Of a DNA stretch of 32,000 nt, positions 12,318-20,212 are shown one piece after another (positions within the stretch are counted from its first letter, which is position 1; each line of letters opens with the position of its first letter). The notes under the pieces were generated by a model that did no database searches, was not told where the DNA came from, and saw nothing but the letters and a program-made list of their open reading frames with translations. The stretch is taken from contig CP001848.1 of NCBI GenBank assembly GCA_000025185.1, positions 5,400,001-5,432,000 on the forward strand, given 5' to 3'. The translations under genes and the position numbers were made by a program. The stretch is from Pirellula staleyi DSM 6068. GTDB taxonomy: Bacteria; Planctomycetota; Planctomycetia; Pirellulales; Pirellulaceae.

Positions 12318-12395
12318 CCTGCGCAAGCTGCCGTAGCAGTTGGCACCCCTGCGAGTGCCTTTGATTTCGCGTGCAATTCATGGAAGAATTTGGAT

Positions 12396-12839
12396 ATGGC
12401 CAAGCATCCCATAGCACGCTCGTGTGGCGTTCTCGTCCTCCGCGATAAGTTGAGCCAGAAGAAGAAAACCGTCGCGCGCGAGTTTCTGCTAATGCGCCAC
12501 AAAGATCGCTGGGATCTTCCCAAAGGGCATGTCGACCTGGGAGAGACCGACCACGACTGTGCGATGCGCGAACTTTGGGAAGAGACCGGAATAGAGCGCG
12601 ACGATATCGCTATCGATCCCACGTTTCGCTGGGAAACTCGCTACGACGTGAAGTGGGATGGCAAGCCGGTCGAGAAGACCCTCGTCATCTTTTTGGGACT
12701 GCTCACGCGTGAAGTAAAAATCAAACCGACCGAGCATGCTGGCTTCGAGTGGTTTCCCTGGAACCCGCCGCATGCCGTTCAAAAGCAAACGATCGACGCG
12801 CTGCTGGCAGCAGCGGAAAAGCATCTCGCGGCGCAATAG
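12396..12839 (+). CDS. NUDIX hydrolase
   Basis: Nudix box GHVDLGETDHDCAMRELWEETGI (G-x5-E-x7-REUxEExGU). ATG at 12396; the track start at 12390 is TTG. Convergent with the operon below. Confidence 0.8.
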   Translation: MAKHPIARSCGVLVLRDKLSQKKKTVAREFLLMRHKDRWDLPKGHVDLGETDHDCAMRELWEETGIERDDIAIDPTFRWETRYDVKWDGKPVEKTLVIFLGLLTREVKIKPTEHAGFEWFPWNPPHAVQKQTIDALLAAAEKHLAAQ

Positions 12840-12868: not shown

Positions 12869-13699
12869 TCAGGCCGCCCCGCGACCTCCGCCCACATTGC
12901 GGCAGCGTTTTGAGCCACAGCCATAGGTGGCGCAGCTTCCAAAATAGCTCCAGCAATCGCGATGATGGCTCGTTTTGCAGGCGGTGCATTGCACGAGCGC
13001 TCCGCTCAATTCGTCGCTGCAGACAGGGCAGGCGGTTTTCACGTCGACGAGCACACGCTTCTCGGAAATGATTTCGATTCCTGAATTGCACGCACCTAGC
13101 GCGGCTTCATAGAGGTCGGCAGCGGCGTCGATAAACGCACTCACAATCTCGGCGCTGCCACTGCCACGCGGCTTGGTGATCGCCAAAAGGCCGCGCATCC
13201 AAGTCACTTCGAGATCGCGATAGCTGTACATCGAGCTCCGTTCGTGAAGTTTGTACAGCCTCACAATCTGATGCTGCACCGAAGGCGTAAGCAACTCGCG
13301 AACCGCGCGCTCGTCTTCTCCGCTGATCATAAACAGGTCGTCGAACACAAAATTACCGACCTGGATATCCTGCATCCCCATCAGCTTGCCAAGCTTTTTC
13401 ATCGCATCTTCGACTTGCAACTGACACCGAAAACGAGCTTCGGGCCACGGCAAGCGAATCACCATGTAGTCGACCTTACCGCGGCGCACGTACTCCAGTT
13501 CACCTTGGGTCGAACCGACTTGAATGGAGAGCTTGGTATTGCTGAAAAAGCCCCCGGCGTAGAGAAGCTTGCCACGATACTTGCGCACCACCTGCTGCAG
13601 GTTGGCTTGCGCTTGCTGCTGGCTCAAGGTCGCGACCACAAAAATGATAATTATGACCGCAATGAAGAGAAAAAAGCCGAAGACTGGTCCGTCGTTCAT
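12869..13699 (-). CDS. membrane-anchored RING-like zinc-finger protein (putative E3), paralogue B
   Basis: 276 aa. N-terminal TM helix FGFFLFIAVIIIIFVVATL. C-terminal CPVCSDELSGALVQCTACKTSHHRDCWSYFGSCATYGCG follows C-x2-C-x10-C-x2-C-x4-H-x2-C-x6-C-x4-C, coded about 12917-13030. The ATG overlaps the upstream stop (ATGA). Confidence 0.7.
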   Translation of the reverse strand: MNDGPVFGFFLFIAVIIIIFVVATLSQQQAQANLQQVVRKYRGKLLYAGGFFSNTKLSIQVGSTQGELEYVRRGKVDYMVIRLPWPEARFRCQLQVEDAMKKLGKLMGMQDIQVGNFVFDDLFMISGEDERAVRELLTPSVQHQIVRLYKLHERSSMYSYRDLEVTWMRGLLAITKPRGSGSAEIVSAFIDAAADLYEAALGACNSGIEIISEKRVLVDVKTACPVCSDELSGALVQCTACKTSHHRDCWSYFGSCATYGCGSKRCRNVGGGRGAA

Positions 13700-14649
13700 G
13701 GCTGACTCTCCACGGGAGGCCCGGAGTCGCTATTTTCGGTCGGTTGTTCCTTCTGGGGCGACAGCTGCGCGATGCGGGGGGCGACCGCCCGGGTTTCTCC
13801 ACAGCCAAACGTGCTGCAAGCACCGGCATATTCCCAGCAGTCGCGATGATAGGGAGTTTTGCACTTCACGCAGCTCACGATGTCGGTCTCCAAAGTTTCT
13901 CCGCACACCACGCATCTTGCGCCGTCGATCACCACCGCATCGCCGGGCGCGACGAATTCAATCCCTTCACTCGAGGTGATGAGCAGCTGATCGTACAGCC
14001 CCACGGCAATGTCGGTGAACTCGATGAGATCGGTGGGGCGGGTCGACAACCATCGCTTGCGAATCGTGAGCATGGTGCGAGCGCAATTGACTTCCGCCCA
14101 CGAACGTTCAGGGAAACGGACCAGCTGCTCGATCGCCGCGCGCACCCCGGTGGAAAGGGACGCCGTGGCATCGCTGGGAGTTCGGGCAATCGTCCGAAAC
14201 TGCTGGTCAAACTCTGGGTCACCCGAGAGGACTTCGAGCAGCGGTGGGGGCAACTCCACATGCGCATGGCTGGCATGTCGCGGAAGGACATCGAGACGCG
14301 GATAAACGCGTGGCAACGTCATGCTGATCTCGAGGACCGGCAGCGAATCGCTCGTGCCATAAGCGGCAACCGTGACACTGACCCAGCTCTCGCCATAGCG
14401 AAAGGTGGTGCGCGGGGCCGAGCCCCAGCTCGACGGCTGAAAGTTACCCCGGCGATTCTCGGCCAAGCGCGCCAGCTGCGCAGGCCAAGGGGCTTTCGAC
14501 GTCCCGACCGCCAGATAGATTGCGAGCCAGACGGCGGTGGCGATCAGGATCAAACCAGCCAGTAAGGCGCACGTCACAGCAACTTCCTTCGGACGGTTGC
14601 TCTTCGAGGAGCCCGACGCACGTTCCTCGGCCAGGGAGCAAGCTGCCAC
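13696..14649 (-). CDS. membrane-anchored RING-like zinc-finger protein (putative E3), paralogue A
   Basis: 317 aa. TM helix CALLAGLILIATAVWLAIYLAV. C-terminal CVVCGETLETDIVSCVKCKTPYHRDCWEYAGACSTFGCG has ligand spacing identical to paralogue B, coded about 13801-13914. GTG start 15 nt after the upstream stop. Confidence 0.7.
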   Translation of the reverse strand: MAACSLAEERASGSSKSNRPKEVAVTCALLAGLILIATAVWLAIYLAVGTSKAPWPAQLARLAENRRGNFQPSSWGSAPRTTFRYGESWVSVTVAAYGTSDSLPVLEISMTLPRVYPRLDVLPRHASHAHVELPPPLLEVLSGDPEFDQQFRTIARTPSDATASLSTGVRAAIEQLVRFPERSWAEVNCARTMLTIRKRWLSTRPTDLIEFTDIAVGLYDQLLITSSEGIEFVAPGDAVVIDGARCVVCGETLETDIVSCVKCKTPYHRDCWEYAGACSTFGCGETRAVAPRIAQLSPQKEQPTENSDSGPPVESQP

Positions 14650-14664
14650 CTCGCCAAACTGCCG

Positions 14665-15348
14665 TTATTCAGGACCAATGTACAGCACATCGCCATCGCC
14701 ACTGGCCGCAGGACGATTCGCGGGGCGGATCGCGCGTCGCTCGGGGAGTTTGGGAGAGGGAGTATTCTCGTCGATGAACATCACTTCGCTGCTCGCAGCA
14801 CCACCGAGGGTCGTCGGCTGACCAGCGACGCGGCTGTAGCGGACCACGTTGCTCGAGACCACTTGGGTTTGCCCCACCAGCGGGCGATTGTCGAGCGGCA
14901 AGGTGTAAGTCGTTTGCTTCTCGAGCCAGTTGCGGGCGGTGAAGTCGACAACGCGATCTTCGTTGACGTAAGCAAGTCGAATCGCGTCCCACAGACGTTC
15001 GCAAACAACATCGAGCGACAGGGCAGGGGACCAATTGAGCCCTAGATCTCCCAGGTTTACGAATCCGCTGAACGAAACATTCGGATGCACAATCGGCGTA
15101 AGCCAACGGACATCAGGCGGACTCTCGGGATAGGAAAATGGCAAACGGATTTCCACCTCGTGCAGTTCGCTGATCGCCATTTCGCTCGACATCGACGTGC
15201 CGCGCGCGAGCCCCTTGCCACGAAAGCGAAGCATGAACCGTTCGACCGGTTCTCCGGTGGCTTCCACTTCAAACACGCGGCTCTGCTCGGCCAGCTCACG
15301 AAGCTTTTTCACATCGCCCGTAATTCGGCTCGTTCGATCTTCGCTCAC
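14665..15348 (-). CDS. E2-fold (UBC-like) protein lacking the catalytic Cys, UEV-like
   Basis: 227 aa and collinear with the E2 at 18779-19546. HPN falls at residues 88-90 in both proteins. Here the sequence is IVHPNVSFSGFVNLG, with Asn98 (AAC, 15055-15057) where the paralogue has Cys98. GTG start overlaps the upstream stop (GTGA). Confidence 0.75.
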   Translation of the reverse strand: MSEDRTSRITGDVKKLRELAEQSRVFEVEATGEPVERFMLRFRGKGLARGTSMSSEMAISELHEVEIRLPFSYPESPPDVRWLTPIVHPNVSFSGFVNLGDLGLNWSPALSLDVVCERLWDAIRLAYVNEDRVVDFTARNWLEKQTTYTLPLDNRPLVGQTQVVSSNVVRYSRVAGQPTTLGGAASSEVMFIDENTPSPKLPERRAIRPANRPAASGDGDVLYIGPE

Positions 15349-16907
15349 GCATCACCTCCTTCACGCTCACTCGAGGTCGAGCGATTTTCCGTACCTGCCA
15401 CTGCATCCTTCGCACTCGGAGGCGAAGACTTACTCAGCACGTTCTTACTCGGTTTCGTAGCAGTGCTCGACTTGTCGTCCGAAATCGTTGCCACCGATTC
15501 AGTATGACCACTCGAGCCCCCGTTTGGCGAGCGGCGGACGAAAAAGGTGACAATCGCAGCCAAAAGCCCCCCACCACCGAGCAACGACAACCCGATGATG
15601 GCCTGCTTTCGGCTGAACAGCGTCGTCTCGGCTTCTCCCTCCGTTTCGGCAGGTTTCTCAGCCGCTGCTACGGTGGCAGGTGTCGTGCTGGCTTTCAGCT
15701 CCCGGAGGGCGATTTCGAGTTCCGTTTTTTTCGTTTCCAGCTGCTCCACGGTGTCGGCGAGGCTGGCGATTCGTTCCTCGCTCTCGACGCGGAGCGCTTC
15801 GAGCTTCTCGACCGTCGCCTGGTTACTCGCTTGCAGTTCGCTGATCATCACTCGCTGCGACTCGCTGATCTCGCGCAGCGATTCGGTTTGATCGTACTTG
15901 GCTTGCAGCCGCTCGACAAAACCGGGCTCGCTGCCGCGCAGCTCTCGCATCATGTCGTCGTAGAACTCGGCGCGAGCCTCGTCGCGCGATTGGCTGCGAC
16001 TTTGCTTTACCGTTTCATCGACACGCGCCGTGAGCGCTTGAGTAACGTCGATCAAATCTTTGCGAGTGACAGCGGGCGCCGTATTCGCGGGAGCTGTCTC
16101 CGCCACGGGAGGCGAGGCGATCTTCCACACCAGAATCGCCAACAGAACCAGCTGCGCAAACATACCGACCTGCCCAGCGAGCTGCTGCCAAACTGGTGGA
16201 GGGGGAGGAGGAGGCGTGGTATGCAAATGGACGTGCGAAGTTCCGGAAATCTGCTTCGATGTGCTGCTCATCAGCTGTATTTCCTCGGGGGCGGTGAGGG
16301 AAGCAACAAACTGCTCCAGCTCTTCCGCGCGGTGCCTGCTCGTCATCAAAAAAAAGCCGCCGGTCTGCTGCGTACGTGGCTTGCGACCGGTGGTCCACTG
16401 AAAGAACCCACGATCGCGCCGACAGGGATCGATCACGAGCGCCACATCGAGCGGCTTATTAAAAAAATTGTCGCAGATAAAGAGATCGAGCCCCGATAAA
16501 AACACACCCCAATCGGGATGCGTGTGATACCAGCCCACCATCTGTAGTTCGGCGGGAAATTCCTCGCGCGTCCGCGTGATCTGCTCCCACGTGTCGTGCG
16601 TGAATTTGAAACTTCCACGGGTGCTTTCGTAGTGCGCAGCGCGGAGACTATCGGTCACCATCACGAACGGCTGTTGCTGCTCGTCTTCACAAAAATAGCC
16701 GAGCATCACGCCACCCAGCTCGACCGTTTTGTCGCTCACGGCATGCAGTTCCATGTCGCGCGCCGCATCGAGGTCGACGTAGATGGGGAGCTCACCTTCG
16801 CGCAGCTTCCCCACGGCCTGCACTGTCAGTTGCCGATTCTGATCGGGACGCAAACGCCGAGCGTGCGAATCTTCTTTCAGCTCACCAAAATCGATGTCGG
16901 AGCTCAC
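15345..16907 (-). CDS. JAB/MPN+ (JAMM) metalloprotease with two TM helices flanking a coiled coil
   Basis: 520 aa. N-terminal JAB domain: E63 in TVELGG and GWYHTHPDWGVFLSGLD (H-x-H-x7-S-x2-D, about 16485-16526). A P7 run precedes TM1 (about aa 244-264). A heptad-like Glu/Leu/Gln-rich segment covers about aa 285-405. TM2 is IIGLSLLGGGGLLAAIVTFFV, followed by RR and a Ser-rich tail. GTG start overlaps the E1 stop. Confidence 0.8.
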   Translation of the reverse strand: MSSDIDFGELKEDSHARRLRPDQNRQLTVQAVGKLREGELPIYVDLDAARDMELHAVSDKTVELGGVMLGYFCEDEQQQPFVMVTDSLRAAHYESTRGSFKFTHDTWEQITRTREEFPAELQMVGWYHTHPDWGVFLSGLDLFICDNFFNKPLDVALVIDPCRRDRGFFQWTTGRKPRTQQTGGFFLMTSRHRAEELEQFVASLTAPEEIQLMSSTSKQISGTSHVHLHTTPPPPPPPVWQQLAGQVGMFAQLVLLAILVWKIASPPVAETAPANTAPAVTRKDLIDVTQALTARVDETVKQSRSQSRDEARAEFYDDMMRELRGSEPGFVERLQAKYDQTESLREISESQRVMISELQASNQATVEKLEALRVESEERIASLADTVEQLETKKTELEIALRELKASTTPATVAAAEKPAETEGEAETTLFSRKQAIIGLSLLGGGGLLAAIVTFFVRRSPNGGSSGHTESVATISDDKSSTATKPSKNVLSKSSPPSAKDAVAGTENRSTSSEREGGDA

Positions 16908-18121
16908 TGAGCAGGCTCCTTTTTCTCGCGCGACGCAGCATCGGCCGGGAGTTTCACGAGCACACGATCGCGATCGGCAGCGAGCAAAAAGAACCCTTCC
17001 TCGCCCGTTGCTTCGCGCGTGATGCGAACAATGTCGTACAGAGGAATCCCGAGCGTCTTCAGGGGCCGATCGGACCAGGGGCTCGACTCGTCAATCGCAT
17101 GCGTGCGATCGACCGACATTACTTCGCGGCATTCGCAAACGGCATCGCGAAACGTGACGAGTGGACTCGCGCGCACGATCTCGCGGACCGCTCCGCACTG
17201 GGCGCACTTCATTCCCGTGACCAAATCGCGATCGAGGTGCAACGTGAGTGGACCTTCCCCCGGCAGATGCGCGGCCGCTGCCGTAAACAGATCTTTCGCC
17301 GTCGCAGTTTCCGACGACAGCGGAAGGTCGATCGCAGTGGGATAAGTGTCGTGACTCAGGCAGTCTTCTTTGCGCTGATAGCGCGTGGTGTAGAACTGAT
17401 TGGTGAGACCGCTATAGACGTACGCTTCGCCCCCTTTGACCGGCAAACCGTGCATCACCTTGAGCGCTTCCTGCACTTCAATCGCGGCCATAATCGACGC
17501 ACTGGTCGGCGCTGTCGGCACTTTACCAGCAAGCAAATCCTCGCGCGGCAAAAGAGGGCAGCTATAGCGCAAGTTGATCAGTTTGTAGTCGTTTTCGGTC
17601 ATCCCGCATTCGTAGCAGGGGCTCTCGGGTGGCGTAAACACCTTCACCACGCCGCTGATCTCTTGAATGCCGGCGTCGATCCACGGGGTGCTCGTTTTCC
17701 AGCAGCAGCGATTGACCCACAGCCTCGCCTCGCGATTGTCGAGGCAGCCAATCGCCACGTCGATATCGCGAAAGAGCCCCAGCCCCAGTTCCGTCATCAC
17801 ATTTCCGCGAATGGGTGTGATGACCACATCGGGATTGATCTCGCTGGCCATTTCCGCAGCAACATGCGCTTTACTTTGTCCTTCGTGACGAGCACGGAAC
17901 AGCACGCTGCGTGTGAGGTTCGAGTTTTCGATCGTGTCGAGGTCGATCACAATCAGATGGCCCACCCCCACCATCACCAGGTTCTTAATCACTTCGTTAC
18001 CGAGCGCCCCAGCGCCAACCACCAGCACTCGCGAACGCTGCAGCTTCGCTTGATCCCACCAGCCAATGAGTCGCAGGCGACTATAGCGGTCGTCTTGATC
18101 GACAATCAGTGGCTCGGCCAT
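16904..18121 (-). CDS. E1-like ubiquitin-activating enzyme (ThiF/MoeB/HesA adenylation superfamily)
   Basis: 405 aa. RYSRLRLIGWWDQAKL, VLVVGAGALGNEVIKNL (GxGxxG), VIDLDTIENSNLTRSVLF, CLDNREAR, CYEC (C169/C172), RYSCPLL (C188), CAQC (C306/C309) and CEC. AGGAGAG RBS 9 nt before the ATG. Confidence 0.85.
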   Translation of the reverse strand: MAEPLIVDQDDRYSRLRLIGWWDQAKLQRSRVLVVGAGALGNEVIKNLVMVGVGHLIVIDLDTIENSNLTRSVLFRARHEGQSKAHVAAEMASEINPDVVITPIRGNVMTELGLGLFRDIDVAIGCLDNREARLWVNRCCWKTSTPWIDAGIQEISGVVKVFTPPESPCYECGMTENDYKLINLRYSCPLLPREDLLAGKVPTAPTSASIMAAIEVQEALKVMHGLPVKGGEAYVYSGLTNQFYTTRYQRKEDCLSHDTYPTAIDLPLSSETATAKDLFTAAAAHLPGEGPLTLHLDRDLVTGMKCAQCGAVREIVRASPLVTFRDAVCECREVMSVDRTHAIDESSPWSDRPLKTLGIPLYDIVRITREATGEEGFFLLAADRDRVLVKLPADAASREKKEPAQ

Positions 18122-18182
18122 CAGTGGGCTCTCCTGGAAACATAGGGGGCGTGATTAGAAATCGGTCGTAGCGCCGTGAGGA

Positions 18183-18719
18183 TCAGGCCAAACGGCCGGT
18201 CACAAAACCACAAGGCTCGATCTGCCGATCACGCCAGTGAAAGAACCCGAGTTCCTTGCGGCGCGGATCGACCACCATAGCGACATGCCACGGCTGGGGG
18301 AAAAAATTGTGGTGGATGAACTTGTCGTAGCTCGACAAAAAAATGCCGAAGTCGGGATGCGTATGATGCCAGCCGACGATGGAAAGTCCGGGATATTTCA
18401 GCTCGGCTTCGCGATGAAGCTCGGCCCATGTATCGTGCGTAAAGACAAGCGATGCTGCCCGCGACTTGGCTTCCGCAGCGGGATGAAAATGCTTGATCAC
18501 GACCAGCATCGGCTTGGTGCCATAGACGCCGCCGAGCAAGAACCCGCCACGCTCGCGACGCAAATCTTGCTCGGAAAACGCGATGATTTCATCGAGCACA
18601 TTCTGGGGCAACACAATCGCCGCGCTCGACAAATAGACCGTCCCGACCGATCGCGGAGACTGCAAATCTCCGAGAGAAAACGTGTCGGTAGTCGGTACGC
18701 TGGGCATGGGTTGTAGCAA
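18183..18719 (-). CDS. JAB/MPN+ (JAMM) metalloprotease, soluble paralogue
   Basis: 178 aa (TTG at 18719; alternative ATG at 18707). E in RRERGG and GWHHTHPDFGIFLSSYD (H-x-H-x7-S-x2-D). Strongly similar to the N-terminal domain of 15345-16907 (FTHDTW..., NFF, DP.R...GFF.W). Confidence 0.8.
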   Translation of the reverse strand: MLQPMPSVPTTDTFSLGDLQSPRSVGTVYLSSAAIVLPQNVLDEIIAFSEQDLRRERGGFLLGGVYGTKPMLVVIKHFHPAAEAKSRAASLVFTHDTWAELHREAELKYPGLSIVGWHHTHPDFGIFLSSYDKFIHHNFFPQPWHVAMVVDPRRKELGFFHWRDRQIEPCGFVTGRLA

Positions 18720-18778
18720 AACTTAAGGTCGTAGCGGATGGAAGAAAACAGGCACTCGCGCGCCCCGCGAGGCCGGGA

Positions 18779-19546
18779 CTAAACGAACTCAATCCCGTCA
18801 TCAGCTGGCGGCGACGGAGGACGCGACGACTCTGCGCGGCGCGGCGGCGGAACAGGAGGTCGCGTTGGCGCTGCGCGACGTGGCGGGAACGGCCCCGCCA
18901 CCGGCGCTGGGCCCGCTGGCTCAGCATCGTCGATGAAGAACAGTCCCTCTTCCTCGGCTGCAGGGACAATCTCGGCCTGCACGGCAGAAGAGGTCGGAGC
19001 CGCTGCGGCGGGTCGCTGCGCGGTCGATGGAGGAGGCTGATGGGTGGCAGCTTCGCGCGAGGCAACCAGATCGCGCAGCGGACGCGGATCGAGTGGCAAG
19101 ATGCCGGGACCTTGCGATTTCGACCAGAGAGCCGCTTCGCGATTGTAAGGGCTGTTGGGGTCGTAGTTCTCGTAGCGAATCATGTCCCACAGCATCGTGC
19201 AGAGCTCGTCGAGCATCAAACTTGGGACCCAGTGCTTTCCATATCCTCCCAGGCAGACAATGCCGCCAGCCGAGATATTGGGGTGAAACACCGGGGATTT
19301 CCACGAGAGTTCGGGCATCGAGCGGGGGTATGAAGCCCCCAGACGCACATGCACTTCGTGAACTGCCAGCAGACGGGGCGCTTGTGCAGGGTCGGGACGA
19401 TACGCCCCACGACCATGAAATCGCAGCACGTAATATTCCGGCGGATTGCCGGTCGCTTCAAAGCGAAAAATGCTGCTGTCAGCGGCCAGTTGTGTTAGCA
19501 AGCGATGATCGCTAGCCAGTCGACGTTGACGAGGAGATTCGCGCAC
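18779..19546 (-). CDS. E2-like ubiquitin-conjugating enzyme with catalytic Cys
   Basis: 255 aa. UBC-core signature YPRSMPELSWKSPVFHPNISAGGIVCLG (HPN then Cys98, TGC at 19253-19255). A roughly 95-aa Pro/Ala-rich tail ends DDGIEFV. GTG start with GGAGGGAG RBS. Confidence 0.85.
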   Translation of the reverse strand: MRESPRQRRLASDHRLLTQLAADSSIFRFEATGNPPEYYVLRFHGRGAYRPDPAQAPRLLAVHEVHVRLGASYPRSMPELSWKSPVFHPNISAGGIVCLGGYGKHWVPSLMLDELCTMLWDMIRYENYDPNSPYNREAALWSKSQGPGILPLDPRPLRDLVASREAATHQPPPSTAQRPAAAAPTSSAVQAEIVPAAEEEGLFFIDDAEPAGPAPVAGPFPPRRAAPTRPPVPPPRRAESSRPPSPPADDGIEFV

Positions 19547-19565
19547 CGATGTATCGTCTCCCTCC

Positions 19566-19586
19566 GCGCGAGCAAAAACCTCGCGC
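19566..19586 (-). promoter_or_regulatory. intercistronic stem-loop abutting the E2 Shine-Dalgarno
   Basis: gcgcgag-caaaaac-ctcgcgc is a perfect 7-bp stem. On the mRNA it sits immediately 5' of GGAGGGAG (19558-19565). The function is inferred. Confidence 0.3.
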
Positions 19587-19657
19587 AGAACTTCCCAGTA
19601 GAGATGTCGATGACAAGTCTGCGCCGGCCACCATGGCTGAGCGCAGCTACCGACAAC

Positions 19658-19945
19658 TTAACCCGCGACGATCTCGGGATAAACAATCAAATGATGTCCA
19701 TCCTGAACACCGGCAGCGGGAAGCGTTTGATCTTCCTGCAAACGGCGGCCACCCTCTTTATGATCGAGGCTGTAGCTCATCGGCTGACCATCAGGGCCCA
19801 TCACCGGCAGATTCATCTTGGTGATGATGTTGGGCAGAATGCGTTTGGCAGTCACGGTGTCGGCGATCACCGCCTCGACACTCTTGGCGCCAGTCTGATC
19901 GAGAAACGTAACTCGTGTACCTTTTCGCTCCGTTTGTTCACTCAC
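19658..19945 (-). CDS. ubiquitin-like (beta-grasp) small protein ending in Gly
   Basis: 95 aa. GTG start preceded by AAGGGAG. The C-terminal half GRRLQEDQTLPAAGVQDGHHLIVYPEIVAG-stop parallels ubiquitin [30 protein letters not shown]. First gene of the operon. The fold assignment is inferred, not computed. Confidence 0.7.
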   Translation of the reverse strand: MSEQTERKGTRVTFLDQTGAKSVEAVIADTVTAKRILPNIITKMNLPVMGPDGQPMSYSLDHKEGGRRLQEDQTLPAAGVQDGHHLIVYPEIVAG

Positions 19946-20212
19946 AGTTTTTGCTCCCTTGGCTGTCGATCATTGCGACTGAGCTACACTAGGCCTATTG
20001 CCCACACACGCCATAAGTGGCGAGAAGTCCCGTCGTTGGGAGTAGCCTAGCCCGTCGAGAAGCGACAGCCTAGTGTGGTATTCGCCGATTCCCGGAAGAT
20101 CTTGAAAACCGCTGCGCGATTCAGCGCAGGGAGTCGCTGCGTGCGCTAGAAGAGGCAATCTGGCCTGAGTTTATGGAGTAGGACTGCGGCAGCCGAGCTT
20201 AGGCTGCAATCC

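Follow-up and report, generated by a model that had tools for sequence, protein, structure and literature searches.

We suggest that a small ubiquitin-like protein (Ubl) encoded by Pirellula staleyi DSM 6068 is conjugated through its terminal glycine, G95, as the modifier of a eukaryote-like conjugation system conserved across the Pirellulaceae, a reading to which we assign a probability of roughly 80%. The ubl gene lies at 19658–19945 on the minus strand of the window, by which we mean the whole stretch of 32,000 nt analyzed here (CP001848.1, 5,400,001–5,432,000 of the forward strand). It is the first of eight co-oriented genes forming an operon (12869–19945, minus strand; gaps of -4 to 111 nt) in which all five component types of such a system, namely Ubl, E1 activating enzyme, E2 conjugating enzyme, RING protein and JAB protease, are present together. 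Conjugation via G95 appears the most likely function because genes for an E1, an E2 and two JAB proteases accompany that of the Ubl. Computation shows the gene directly, together with the fold of its product, the invariant Ala-Gly end, the operon and its degree of conservation, and the enzymes' catalytic motifs.

The open reading frame (ORF) starts with a GTG at 19945, 8 nt downstream of a Shine-Dalgarno-like AAGGGAG (19954–19960, minus strand), and a TAA stands right behind the C-terminal HHLIVYPEIVAG, so that the 95-aa product ends in YPEIVAG. An earlier description made from the letters alone (hereafter the sequence-only reading) had given the same length, start codon, ribosome-binding site and stop directly after PEIVAG, and each of these was confirmed. 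The Ubl matches the Pfam family YukD (PF08817) with E = 1.5e-16 and 61.4 bits, the gathering cut-off being 27. The protein database holds 1068 homologs, of which the best 120 are each at least 83% identical, and 277 species-representative genomes encode a relative. The comparative counts given below rest on 80 loci fetched from these 277 species genomes, nearly all of them labelled Pirellulaceae, Planctomycetaceae or Planctomycetota. Across the 55 orthologs that align without gaps to the Ubl core, mean amino acid identity is 89%, and identity at codon positions 1, 2 and 3 is 90, 92 and 44.5%, respectively. As the protein remains about 89% identical while third codon positions have fallen to 44.5%, the gene is under strong purifying selection; by this comparison its synonymous sites are near saturation and the protein is barely altered. 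We conclude that the ORF is a real gene. The window carries many chance ORFs of similar size in other frames, and two on the plus strand, 19505–20050 (181 aa) and 19549–19824 (91 aa), overlap ubl in antisense; these two are by-products of the GC-rich coding strand and not genes. A sigma-70 promoter scan gave no match, the sigma-70 model being uninformative for Planctomycetes, and the terminator-like matches were disregarded as they fall within genes.

Searching solved structures with the Ubl sequence gave nothing meaningful, and the fold was therefore established from a structural model and Foldseek. The AlphaFold2 model (mean pLDDT 88, pTM 0.77) has a beta-grasp topology (beta-beta-alpha-beta...beta) with strands at residues 10–16, 22–27, 55–62 and 84–92 and a helix at residues 33–43; confidence is low at residues 1–4 only, and the C-terminal tail is softer. 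When the model is compared with the PDB by Foldseek, the ubiquitin of Caldiarchaeum subterraneum comes first (6fnn_C, E = 3e-6; 6fno_D and 6fj7 as well), followed by SUMO1, ubiquitin and NEDD8 at about 14–22% identity. The top matches have E-values of 3e-6 to 6e-5, target-normalised TM scores of about 0.7–0.8 and a probability of 1.00. The Ubl is a ubiquitin-fold protein: the YukD match, the AlphaFold topology and the Foldseek neighbours agree on the ubiquitin-like identity first proposed by the sequence-only reading, and structure prediction, which that reading had named as a check, returned a beta-grasp fold. The same reading had aligned the C-terminus to ubiquitin by eye. A similarity is indeed present, since the last 30 aa, anchored at the end and ungapped in a single register picked after the fact, share 7 identities with ubiquitin and score 26 with BLOSUM62 against -29.6 ± 12.2 for shuffled sequences, but it is modest, and we regard this likeness as real but weak.

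The last two residues, A94 and G95, are invariant in 80 of 80 species, as are K21, K43 and K63. The stop codon follows immediately behind the glycine in 57 of the 80 species genomes, whereas the remaining 23 run on for 1–17 aa in tails that are not conserved. The best 120 database homologs give the same picture, with 83 ending at PEIVAG and 37 carrying tails of 1–43 residues. In the wider family, sampled through representatives of clusters at 50% identity, the most distant being about 38% identical, Ala-Gly stands at 115 of 119 domain ends, and the sequence beyond it ranges from 0 to more than 400 residues; cluster representatives may favor long sequences, and these tail proportions should not be read as frequencies. 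The pattern of an invariant Ala-Gly with either a stop or an unconserved tail behind it points to a C-terminus with a chemical role, from which any extension is discarded. As regards lysines, the sequence-only reading listed five as potential sites for chain building. Four of its positions (K8, K21, K34 and K43) were right and the fifth is K63 rather than K64, but conservation narrows the invariant lysines to K21, K43 and K63.

In this genome the TAA directly follows G95, so the glycine carboxylate is exposed without proteolysis, as had been proposed, and the P. staleyi Ubl needs no C-terminal trimming. The further proposal that the mature form is an exception among such proteins did not hold, as a stop after the glycine is the majority state in both samples. 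The mature form is the commonest allele state in a family with a drifting stop-codon position, and not a special adaptation. Conversely, since about 30% of close orthologs bear variable tails after the invariant Ala-Gly, the family as a whole has very probably retained C-terminal trimming. Tailed Ubls occur in 15 of 47 operons with two JAB genes and in 3 of 12 with one, in both kinds alike, and the suggestion that both JAB proteases act purely as deconjugases is therefore unsupported as a general rule.

A mature end is also familiar from other proteins of this fold. ThiS, MoaD, the SAMPs and Urm1 are normally made in mature form; ThiS, MoaD, SAMP1/2 and Urm1 end in Gly-Gly, and a single terminal glycine is found in Atg12 and in mature UFM1 or Atg8. 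Part of the Type II BilA proteins are mature as well (PMC10557695). The mature Ubl end is not unusual. What the Pirellula Ubl has in common with the mature and single-glycine proteins is a glycine carboxylate exposed at translation or after minimal trimming, and a tolerance for a penultimate residue other than glycine; in contrast to the Pirellula protein, they come without an operon of RING E3 and JAB genes of this kind.

Some remote relatives show other arrangements behind the Ala-Gly. In four of them (P0177, P0183, P0220 and P0236) the Ubl ends in Ala-Gly and is followed by a cysteine and a domain that, judged by eye, resembles Hint or intein domains (AG followed by CF...VHN); in P0220 this domain sits between two Ubl units. 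Such a domain could free or activate the glycine by self-cleavage, without a protease. Another relative, P0121, is a tandem di-Ubl in which both units end in Ala-Gly, similar to polyubiquitin, and P0130 and P0187 are fusions of Ubl to E2 in which the Ala-Gly is followed by a linker and an E2 with HPN...Cys. Either true fusions or gene calls that read through could account for these.

The enzymes encoded downstream, all on the minus strand, retain the residues that a conjugation pathway would use. The E1 (16904–18121) is an adenylating enzyme of the ThiF fold (Pfam ThiF, E = 8e-56) with a CxxC zinc site in the crossover loop, a cysteine in RYSCP (Cys188) and a C-terminal cluster of four cysteines. 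Among solved structures it is most similar to the active adenylation domains of UBA7, UBA1 and SAE2 (E = 1e-31 to 1e-27), with ThiF and MoeB behind them. Cys188 is conserved in 70 of the 72 loci with an E1 match, and the CxxC and the C-terminal cluster are conserved too. The first E2, E2a (18779–19546), has the UBC fold with HPN, a catalytic Cys98 and a proline-rich C-terminal tail (Pfam UQ_con, E = 9e-12). It aligns to UbcH5/Ubc4 with FHPN...C conserved and Cys98 on the active site of UbcH5, and the cysteine is present in 78 of 78 orthologs.

The second E2, E2b (14665–15348; UQ_con, E = 1e-11), is a UEV-like paralog that has kept HPN and has Asn98 in place of the catalytic cysteine. Its best solved matches are Ubc13, with the asparagine aligned to the active-site position. 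Among 47 orthologs this position is never cysteine (N, D, S, R, G, H, K, A and Q all occur), whereas HPN is invariant. We read E2b as a putative UEV-like pseudo-E2 beside an active E2, an arrangement reminiscent of Ubc13-Mms2. A serine nucleophile of the kind reported for the oxyester-based Bub enzymes was considered for E2b and rejected, because the position is variable and serine occurs in only 4 of 47 orthologs.

Both JAB proteins have an intact JAMM motif. JABa (18183–18719) is a soluble JAMM metalloprotease (HTHPDFGIFLSSYD; HTHx7SxxD) matching Pfam JAB and Prok-JAB. Its closest solved structures are AMSH, CSN5, CsRpn11 and Rpn11, and the JAMM ligands are invariant in 54 orthologs. The listed TTG start at 18719 has no Shine-Dalgarno site and is uncertain, and the true start may lie downstream of it. 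JABb (15345–16907; 520 aa; Pfam JAB, E = 6e-9) joins its JAMM motif (HTHPDWGVFLSGLD), the ligands of which are conserved in 53 orthologs, to a proline-rich linker that includes a run of prolines, a pair of hydrophobic segments and a long region rich in Glu and Leu that resembles a coiled coil, the segments having been read by eye; as judged from its sequence the protein is probably membrane-anchored. The operon closes with two candidate E3 genes, RING1 (13696–14649; Pfam E = 9e-13) and RING2 (12869–13699; Pfam E = 1.7e-12), each encoding a protein with a hydrophobic anchor at the N-terminus and a Prok-RING_1 finger at the C-terminus. RING2 has a further match, to DUF3137.

Genes overlap by 4 nt at three junctions, E1/JABb, JABb/E2b and RING1/RING2. 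The widest gap, by contrast, is the 111-nt spacer between ubl and E2a (19547–19657, minus strand), which holds two predicted RNA hairpins, the second of which stops just before the ribosome-binding site of E2a. The minimum free energy of the spacer is -46.9 kcal/mol, with a modest z-score of -2.4 against shuffled sequences, and the hairpins might set the ratio of Ubl to enzyme expression. The sequence-only reading called ubl the first and best-initiated cistron. It is the first, but better Shine-Dalgarno sites are found in front of E2a (GGAGGGAG) and E2b (AAGGAGGTGA), the latter being the strongest of the operon.

From these components we infer a pathway, including adenylation, thioester transfer, E3 activity, targets, chain formation and a division of roles between the JAB proteins. 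The Ubl would adopt a ubiquitin-type beta-grasp, its short flexible tail (...PEIVAG) ending at Gly95 in this genome and so calling for no trimming. The E1 would adenylate the Gly95 carboxylate and load the Ubl on Cys188 as a thioester, with Cys98 of E2a as the next carrier. Transfer to target lysines at the cytoplasmic membrane, possibly including those of the Ubl itself, could then be promoted by the two membrane-anchored Prok-RING_1 proteins as E3 adapters, with the cysteine-less E2b acting as a UEV-type cofactor or a Ubl-binding subunit. JABa and JABb would reverse the modification, and would also trim the tail in the roughly 30% of relatives whose gene passes the glycine.

Several observations weigh against this proposal. 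By sequence the Ubl sits in Pfam YukD and not in Pfam ubiquitin, for which it gave no match, and its end is Ala-Gly rather than Gly-Gly. A BLASTP alignment of the whole Ubl with human ubiquitin is not significant (E = 0.77), and its register differs from that of the alignment made by eye. The resemblance to ubiquitin is confined to the fold and the last 30 aa. AlphaFold2 was given a shallow alignment, in which each of the 27 sequences was at least 83% identical, and of its five models two scored badly (pLDDT 52 and 39). The membrane topology of RING1, RING2 and JABb was judged by eye from charged residues. Finally, a literature search gave no experimental evidence of conjugation for any member of the bacterial family, and Bacillus subtilis YukD is reported as not conjugated (PMC1779556).

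The conservation of the operon bears on what kind of system it is. The gene order Ubl-E2-JAB-E1-JAB-E2b-RING is kept across the 80 Pirellulaceae loci, in full wherever the contig extends far enough. In a minority the operon takes a shorter five-gene form, Ubl-E2-E1-JAB(b)-RING, without JABa and E2b (L021, L032, L034, L040, L046, L052, L057, L068, L069 and L072), and some of these loci, such as L068 and L072, still carry tailed Ubls. RING1 is syntenic in 53 of the 80 loci, the rest being without a detectable match, several of them on contigs that end inside the operon; tandem RING paralogs (at least two) occur in 21 of the 53 loci with a detectable RING gene. In the 41 complete loci, mean identity to the proteins of the window is 87% for Ubl, 58% for E1, 54% for E2a, 50% for JABa, 44% for both JABb and E2b and 32% for RING1, which makes the RING genes the fastest-evolving of the operon. 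The Ubl itself is 81–94% identical across species, and this ubiquitin-like constraint suggests that it may have many interaction partners.

At its 3′-end the operon is adjoined by a NUDIX hydrolase gene on the opposite strand (12390–12839). The downstream neighbours NUDIX, cobalamin adenosyltransferase and AmtB recur in about one in three fully flanked loci, and do so at an E1 identity of only about 55%; the retention of neighbours despite this divergence fits long vertical inheritance over recent transfer. The wider window (Sua5, GlnD, AmtB, cobalamin adenosyltransferase, a PD40 protein, DUF1501, PSCyt/PSD1, a transglutaminase-like protein and GNAT) is made up of housekeeping and planctomycete-typical genes, and its annotated ORFs include none that belong to type VII secretion, phages, mobile elements or known defence systems.

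Operons of this general type are known. Burroughs, Iyer and Aravind predicted bacterial operons of Ub, E1, E2, RING and JAB genes in 2011, Planctomycetes included, as that work is cited in later papers (PMC4197634; PMC3417536; PMC10557695), and the Pirellula operon very probably belongs to the same class, with Pfam Prok-RING_1 and Prok-JAB matching its proteins. In later accounts such operons are described as sporadic and mobile (PMC4197634; PMC3417536); the Pirellulaceae operon is in contrast family-wide and syntenic, the comparison being second-hand.

The ubiquitin operon of Caldiarchaeum subterraneum, with genes for ubiquitin (CsUb), E1, E2, a small RING E3 and an Rpn11-like JAMM protease, has been reconstituted in vitro (PMC5654768; PMC6043591). 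It shares with the Pirellula operon the same five component types in one cluster, an E1 and E2 of eukaryotic type, JAMM as the sole deconjugase and a second E3 paralog; its ubiquitin is the structure that the Ubl model matches best, and the short five-gene form found in some Pirellulaceae matches its five-component set. On the other hand, CsUb is an 87-aa precursor with a 9-aa tail past Gly-Gly that blocks activation by E1 until CsRpn11 removes it, although a stop codon placed after the Gly-Gly also yields an active modifier (PMC5654768; PMC6043591), whereas the Pirellula gene stops at Ala-Gly. Further differences are that the Ubl is only about 21% identical to CsUb and scores as Pfam YukD, that Pirellula adds a second JAB with a membrane and coiled-coil region and an E2 lacking the cysteine, and that its RING proteins are membrane-anchored and of the Prok-RING_1 type.

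Alternatively, the Ubl could belong to a Bil-type anti-phage defence system and be conjugated to phage structural proteins on infection, instead of acting in a housekeeping pathway. The first four genes stand in the exact Bil order, Ubl-E2-JAB-E1, and PADLOC finds weak matches of JABa to BilC (2e-4) and of E1 to BilD (9e-8). The likeness is closest to Type II Bil (PMC10557695; 10.1101/2024.11.21.623966), which has this gene order, a single beta-grasp Ubl and a JAB that both trims and deconjugates, which we count as a further likeness; in BilA a universally conserved glycine is followed by up to nine variable, unconserved residues, which its JAB removes (PMC10557695), and the conserved glycine of the Pirellula family with zero to several variable residues after it matches this pattern. 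Nevertheless, PADLOC gives no match for the Ubl (BilA), for either E2 (BilB) or for the RING proteins, and its E1 matches are generic. The E2s match the eukaryotic-type UQ_con, and RING E3s and a UEV-like protein are present in addition. The operon is found in 277 species genomes with conserved synteny and partly kept neighbours, in a chromosomal core of housekeeping genes rather than a defence island with mobile genes, and 87% conservation of the Ubl is unlike that of fast-evolving defence genes. We consider such a role improbable. Membership in Bil or CBASS defence was rejected on the PADLOC results and the genomic context.

The position of the Ubl in Pfam YukD, with a score exceeding the gathering threshold, raises the question of whether it is a non-conjugated adaptor of the YukD/EsaB type (PF08817; PDB 2bps) that acts by binding only. 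In addition to sharing family and beta-grasp fold with these proteins, it has a weak match, far below cut-off, to the N-terminal domain of EccD, and NCBI and JGI names such as 'EsaB/YukD family protein' point the same way. However, YukD is reported to be unconjugated and is found in ESX or type VII secretion clusters, whereas none of the genes of such a cluster (FtsK-like ATPase, WXG100, EccD) is among the annotated ORFs of the window; the ubl gene is always linked to E1, E2, JAB and RING genes, the terminal Ala-Gly is invariant with variable tails behind it, and the structural neighbours are conjugated proteins. We find a pure binding function quite unlikely, and propose instead that the Ubl would work as a modifier of the ubiquitin or SAMP type and yet belong to the YukD clade by sequence.

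A sulfur carrier of the ThiS/MoaD type, in which the E1 would thiocarboxylate the terminal glycine for the thiolation of cofactors or tRNA, would likewise have a mature terminal glycine and an E1 of the ThiF/MoeB superfamily. It is very unlikely here, given that every NCBIfam ThiF/MoeB match lies far under its cut-off, that UBA7, UBA1 and SAE2 are the closest solved structures of the E1, that a rhodanese domain is missing from the E1 and genes for ThiG, MoaE or a sulfurtransferase from its vicinity, and that an E2, a UEV-like protein, RING proteins and two JAB proteases have no role in sulfur transfer. Least credible of all is that a sequencing or assembly error created the stop and that the true protein is a longer precursor, as the tails of about 30% of orthologs might be taken to imply, because the stop after the glycine is seen independently in those 57 of 80 species genomes, with all three stop codons (TAA 35, TAG 26 and TGA 19 across all ubl loci), and recurs in 83 of 120 homologs.

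Conjugation through G95 remains our preferred reading. The ready-made terminal glycine matters little, being the usual state in this and several other Ubl families, although it is handy in practice, in that recombinant Ubl can enter E1 assays directly with no processing step. The operon type was already predicted in bacteria and its archaeal counterpart already reconstituted. Of more interest than the C-terminus is the operon as a bacterial version of the E1-E2-RING-JAMM cascade known from archaea and eukaryotes, one that is, as far as we found, experimentally untouched; our literature search found no study of the Pirellulaceae system itself, and no description of an E2/UEV-like pair in bacteria in the literature examined. 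We point out that homologs are publicly named 'EsaB/YukD family protein' or 'type VII secretion system protein YukD' (P0080 of Lignipirellula cremea, for instance), and that this naming is misleading for a clade that has no type VII secretion context.

The attractions of the system are that it occurs throughout a bacterial family with cultured members, that its modifier is almost as constrained as ubiquitin, and that it has an E2/UEV-like pair together with membrane RING proteins and a membrane JAMM protein. It is possible, although we offer this only tentatively, that what the Pirellulaceae have is a housekeeping ubiquitin system, passed on vertically, and not a sporadic mobile or defence module. 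Membrane proteins would then receive Ubl marks, possibly chains, and lose them again through the joint action of an active E2 with its UEV-like pseudo-E2, membrane-anchored RING E3s and a membrane JAMM protease of the AMSH-like kind. If this is true, it would be a bacterial analogue of ubiquitin-dependent regulation of membrane proteins.

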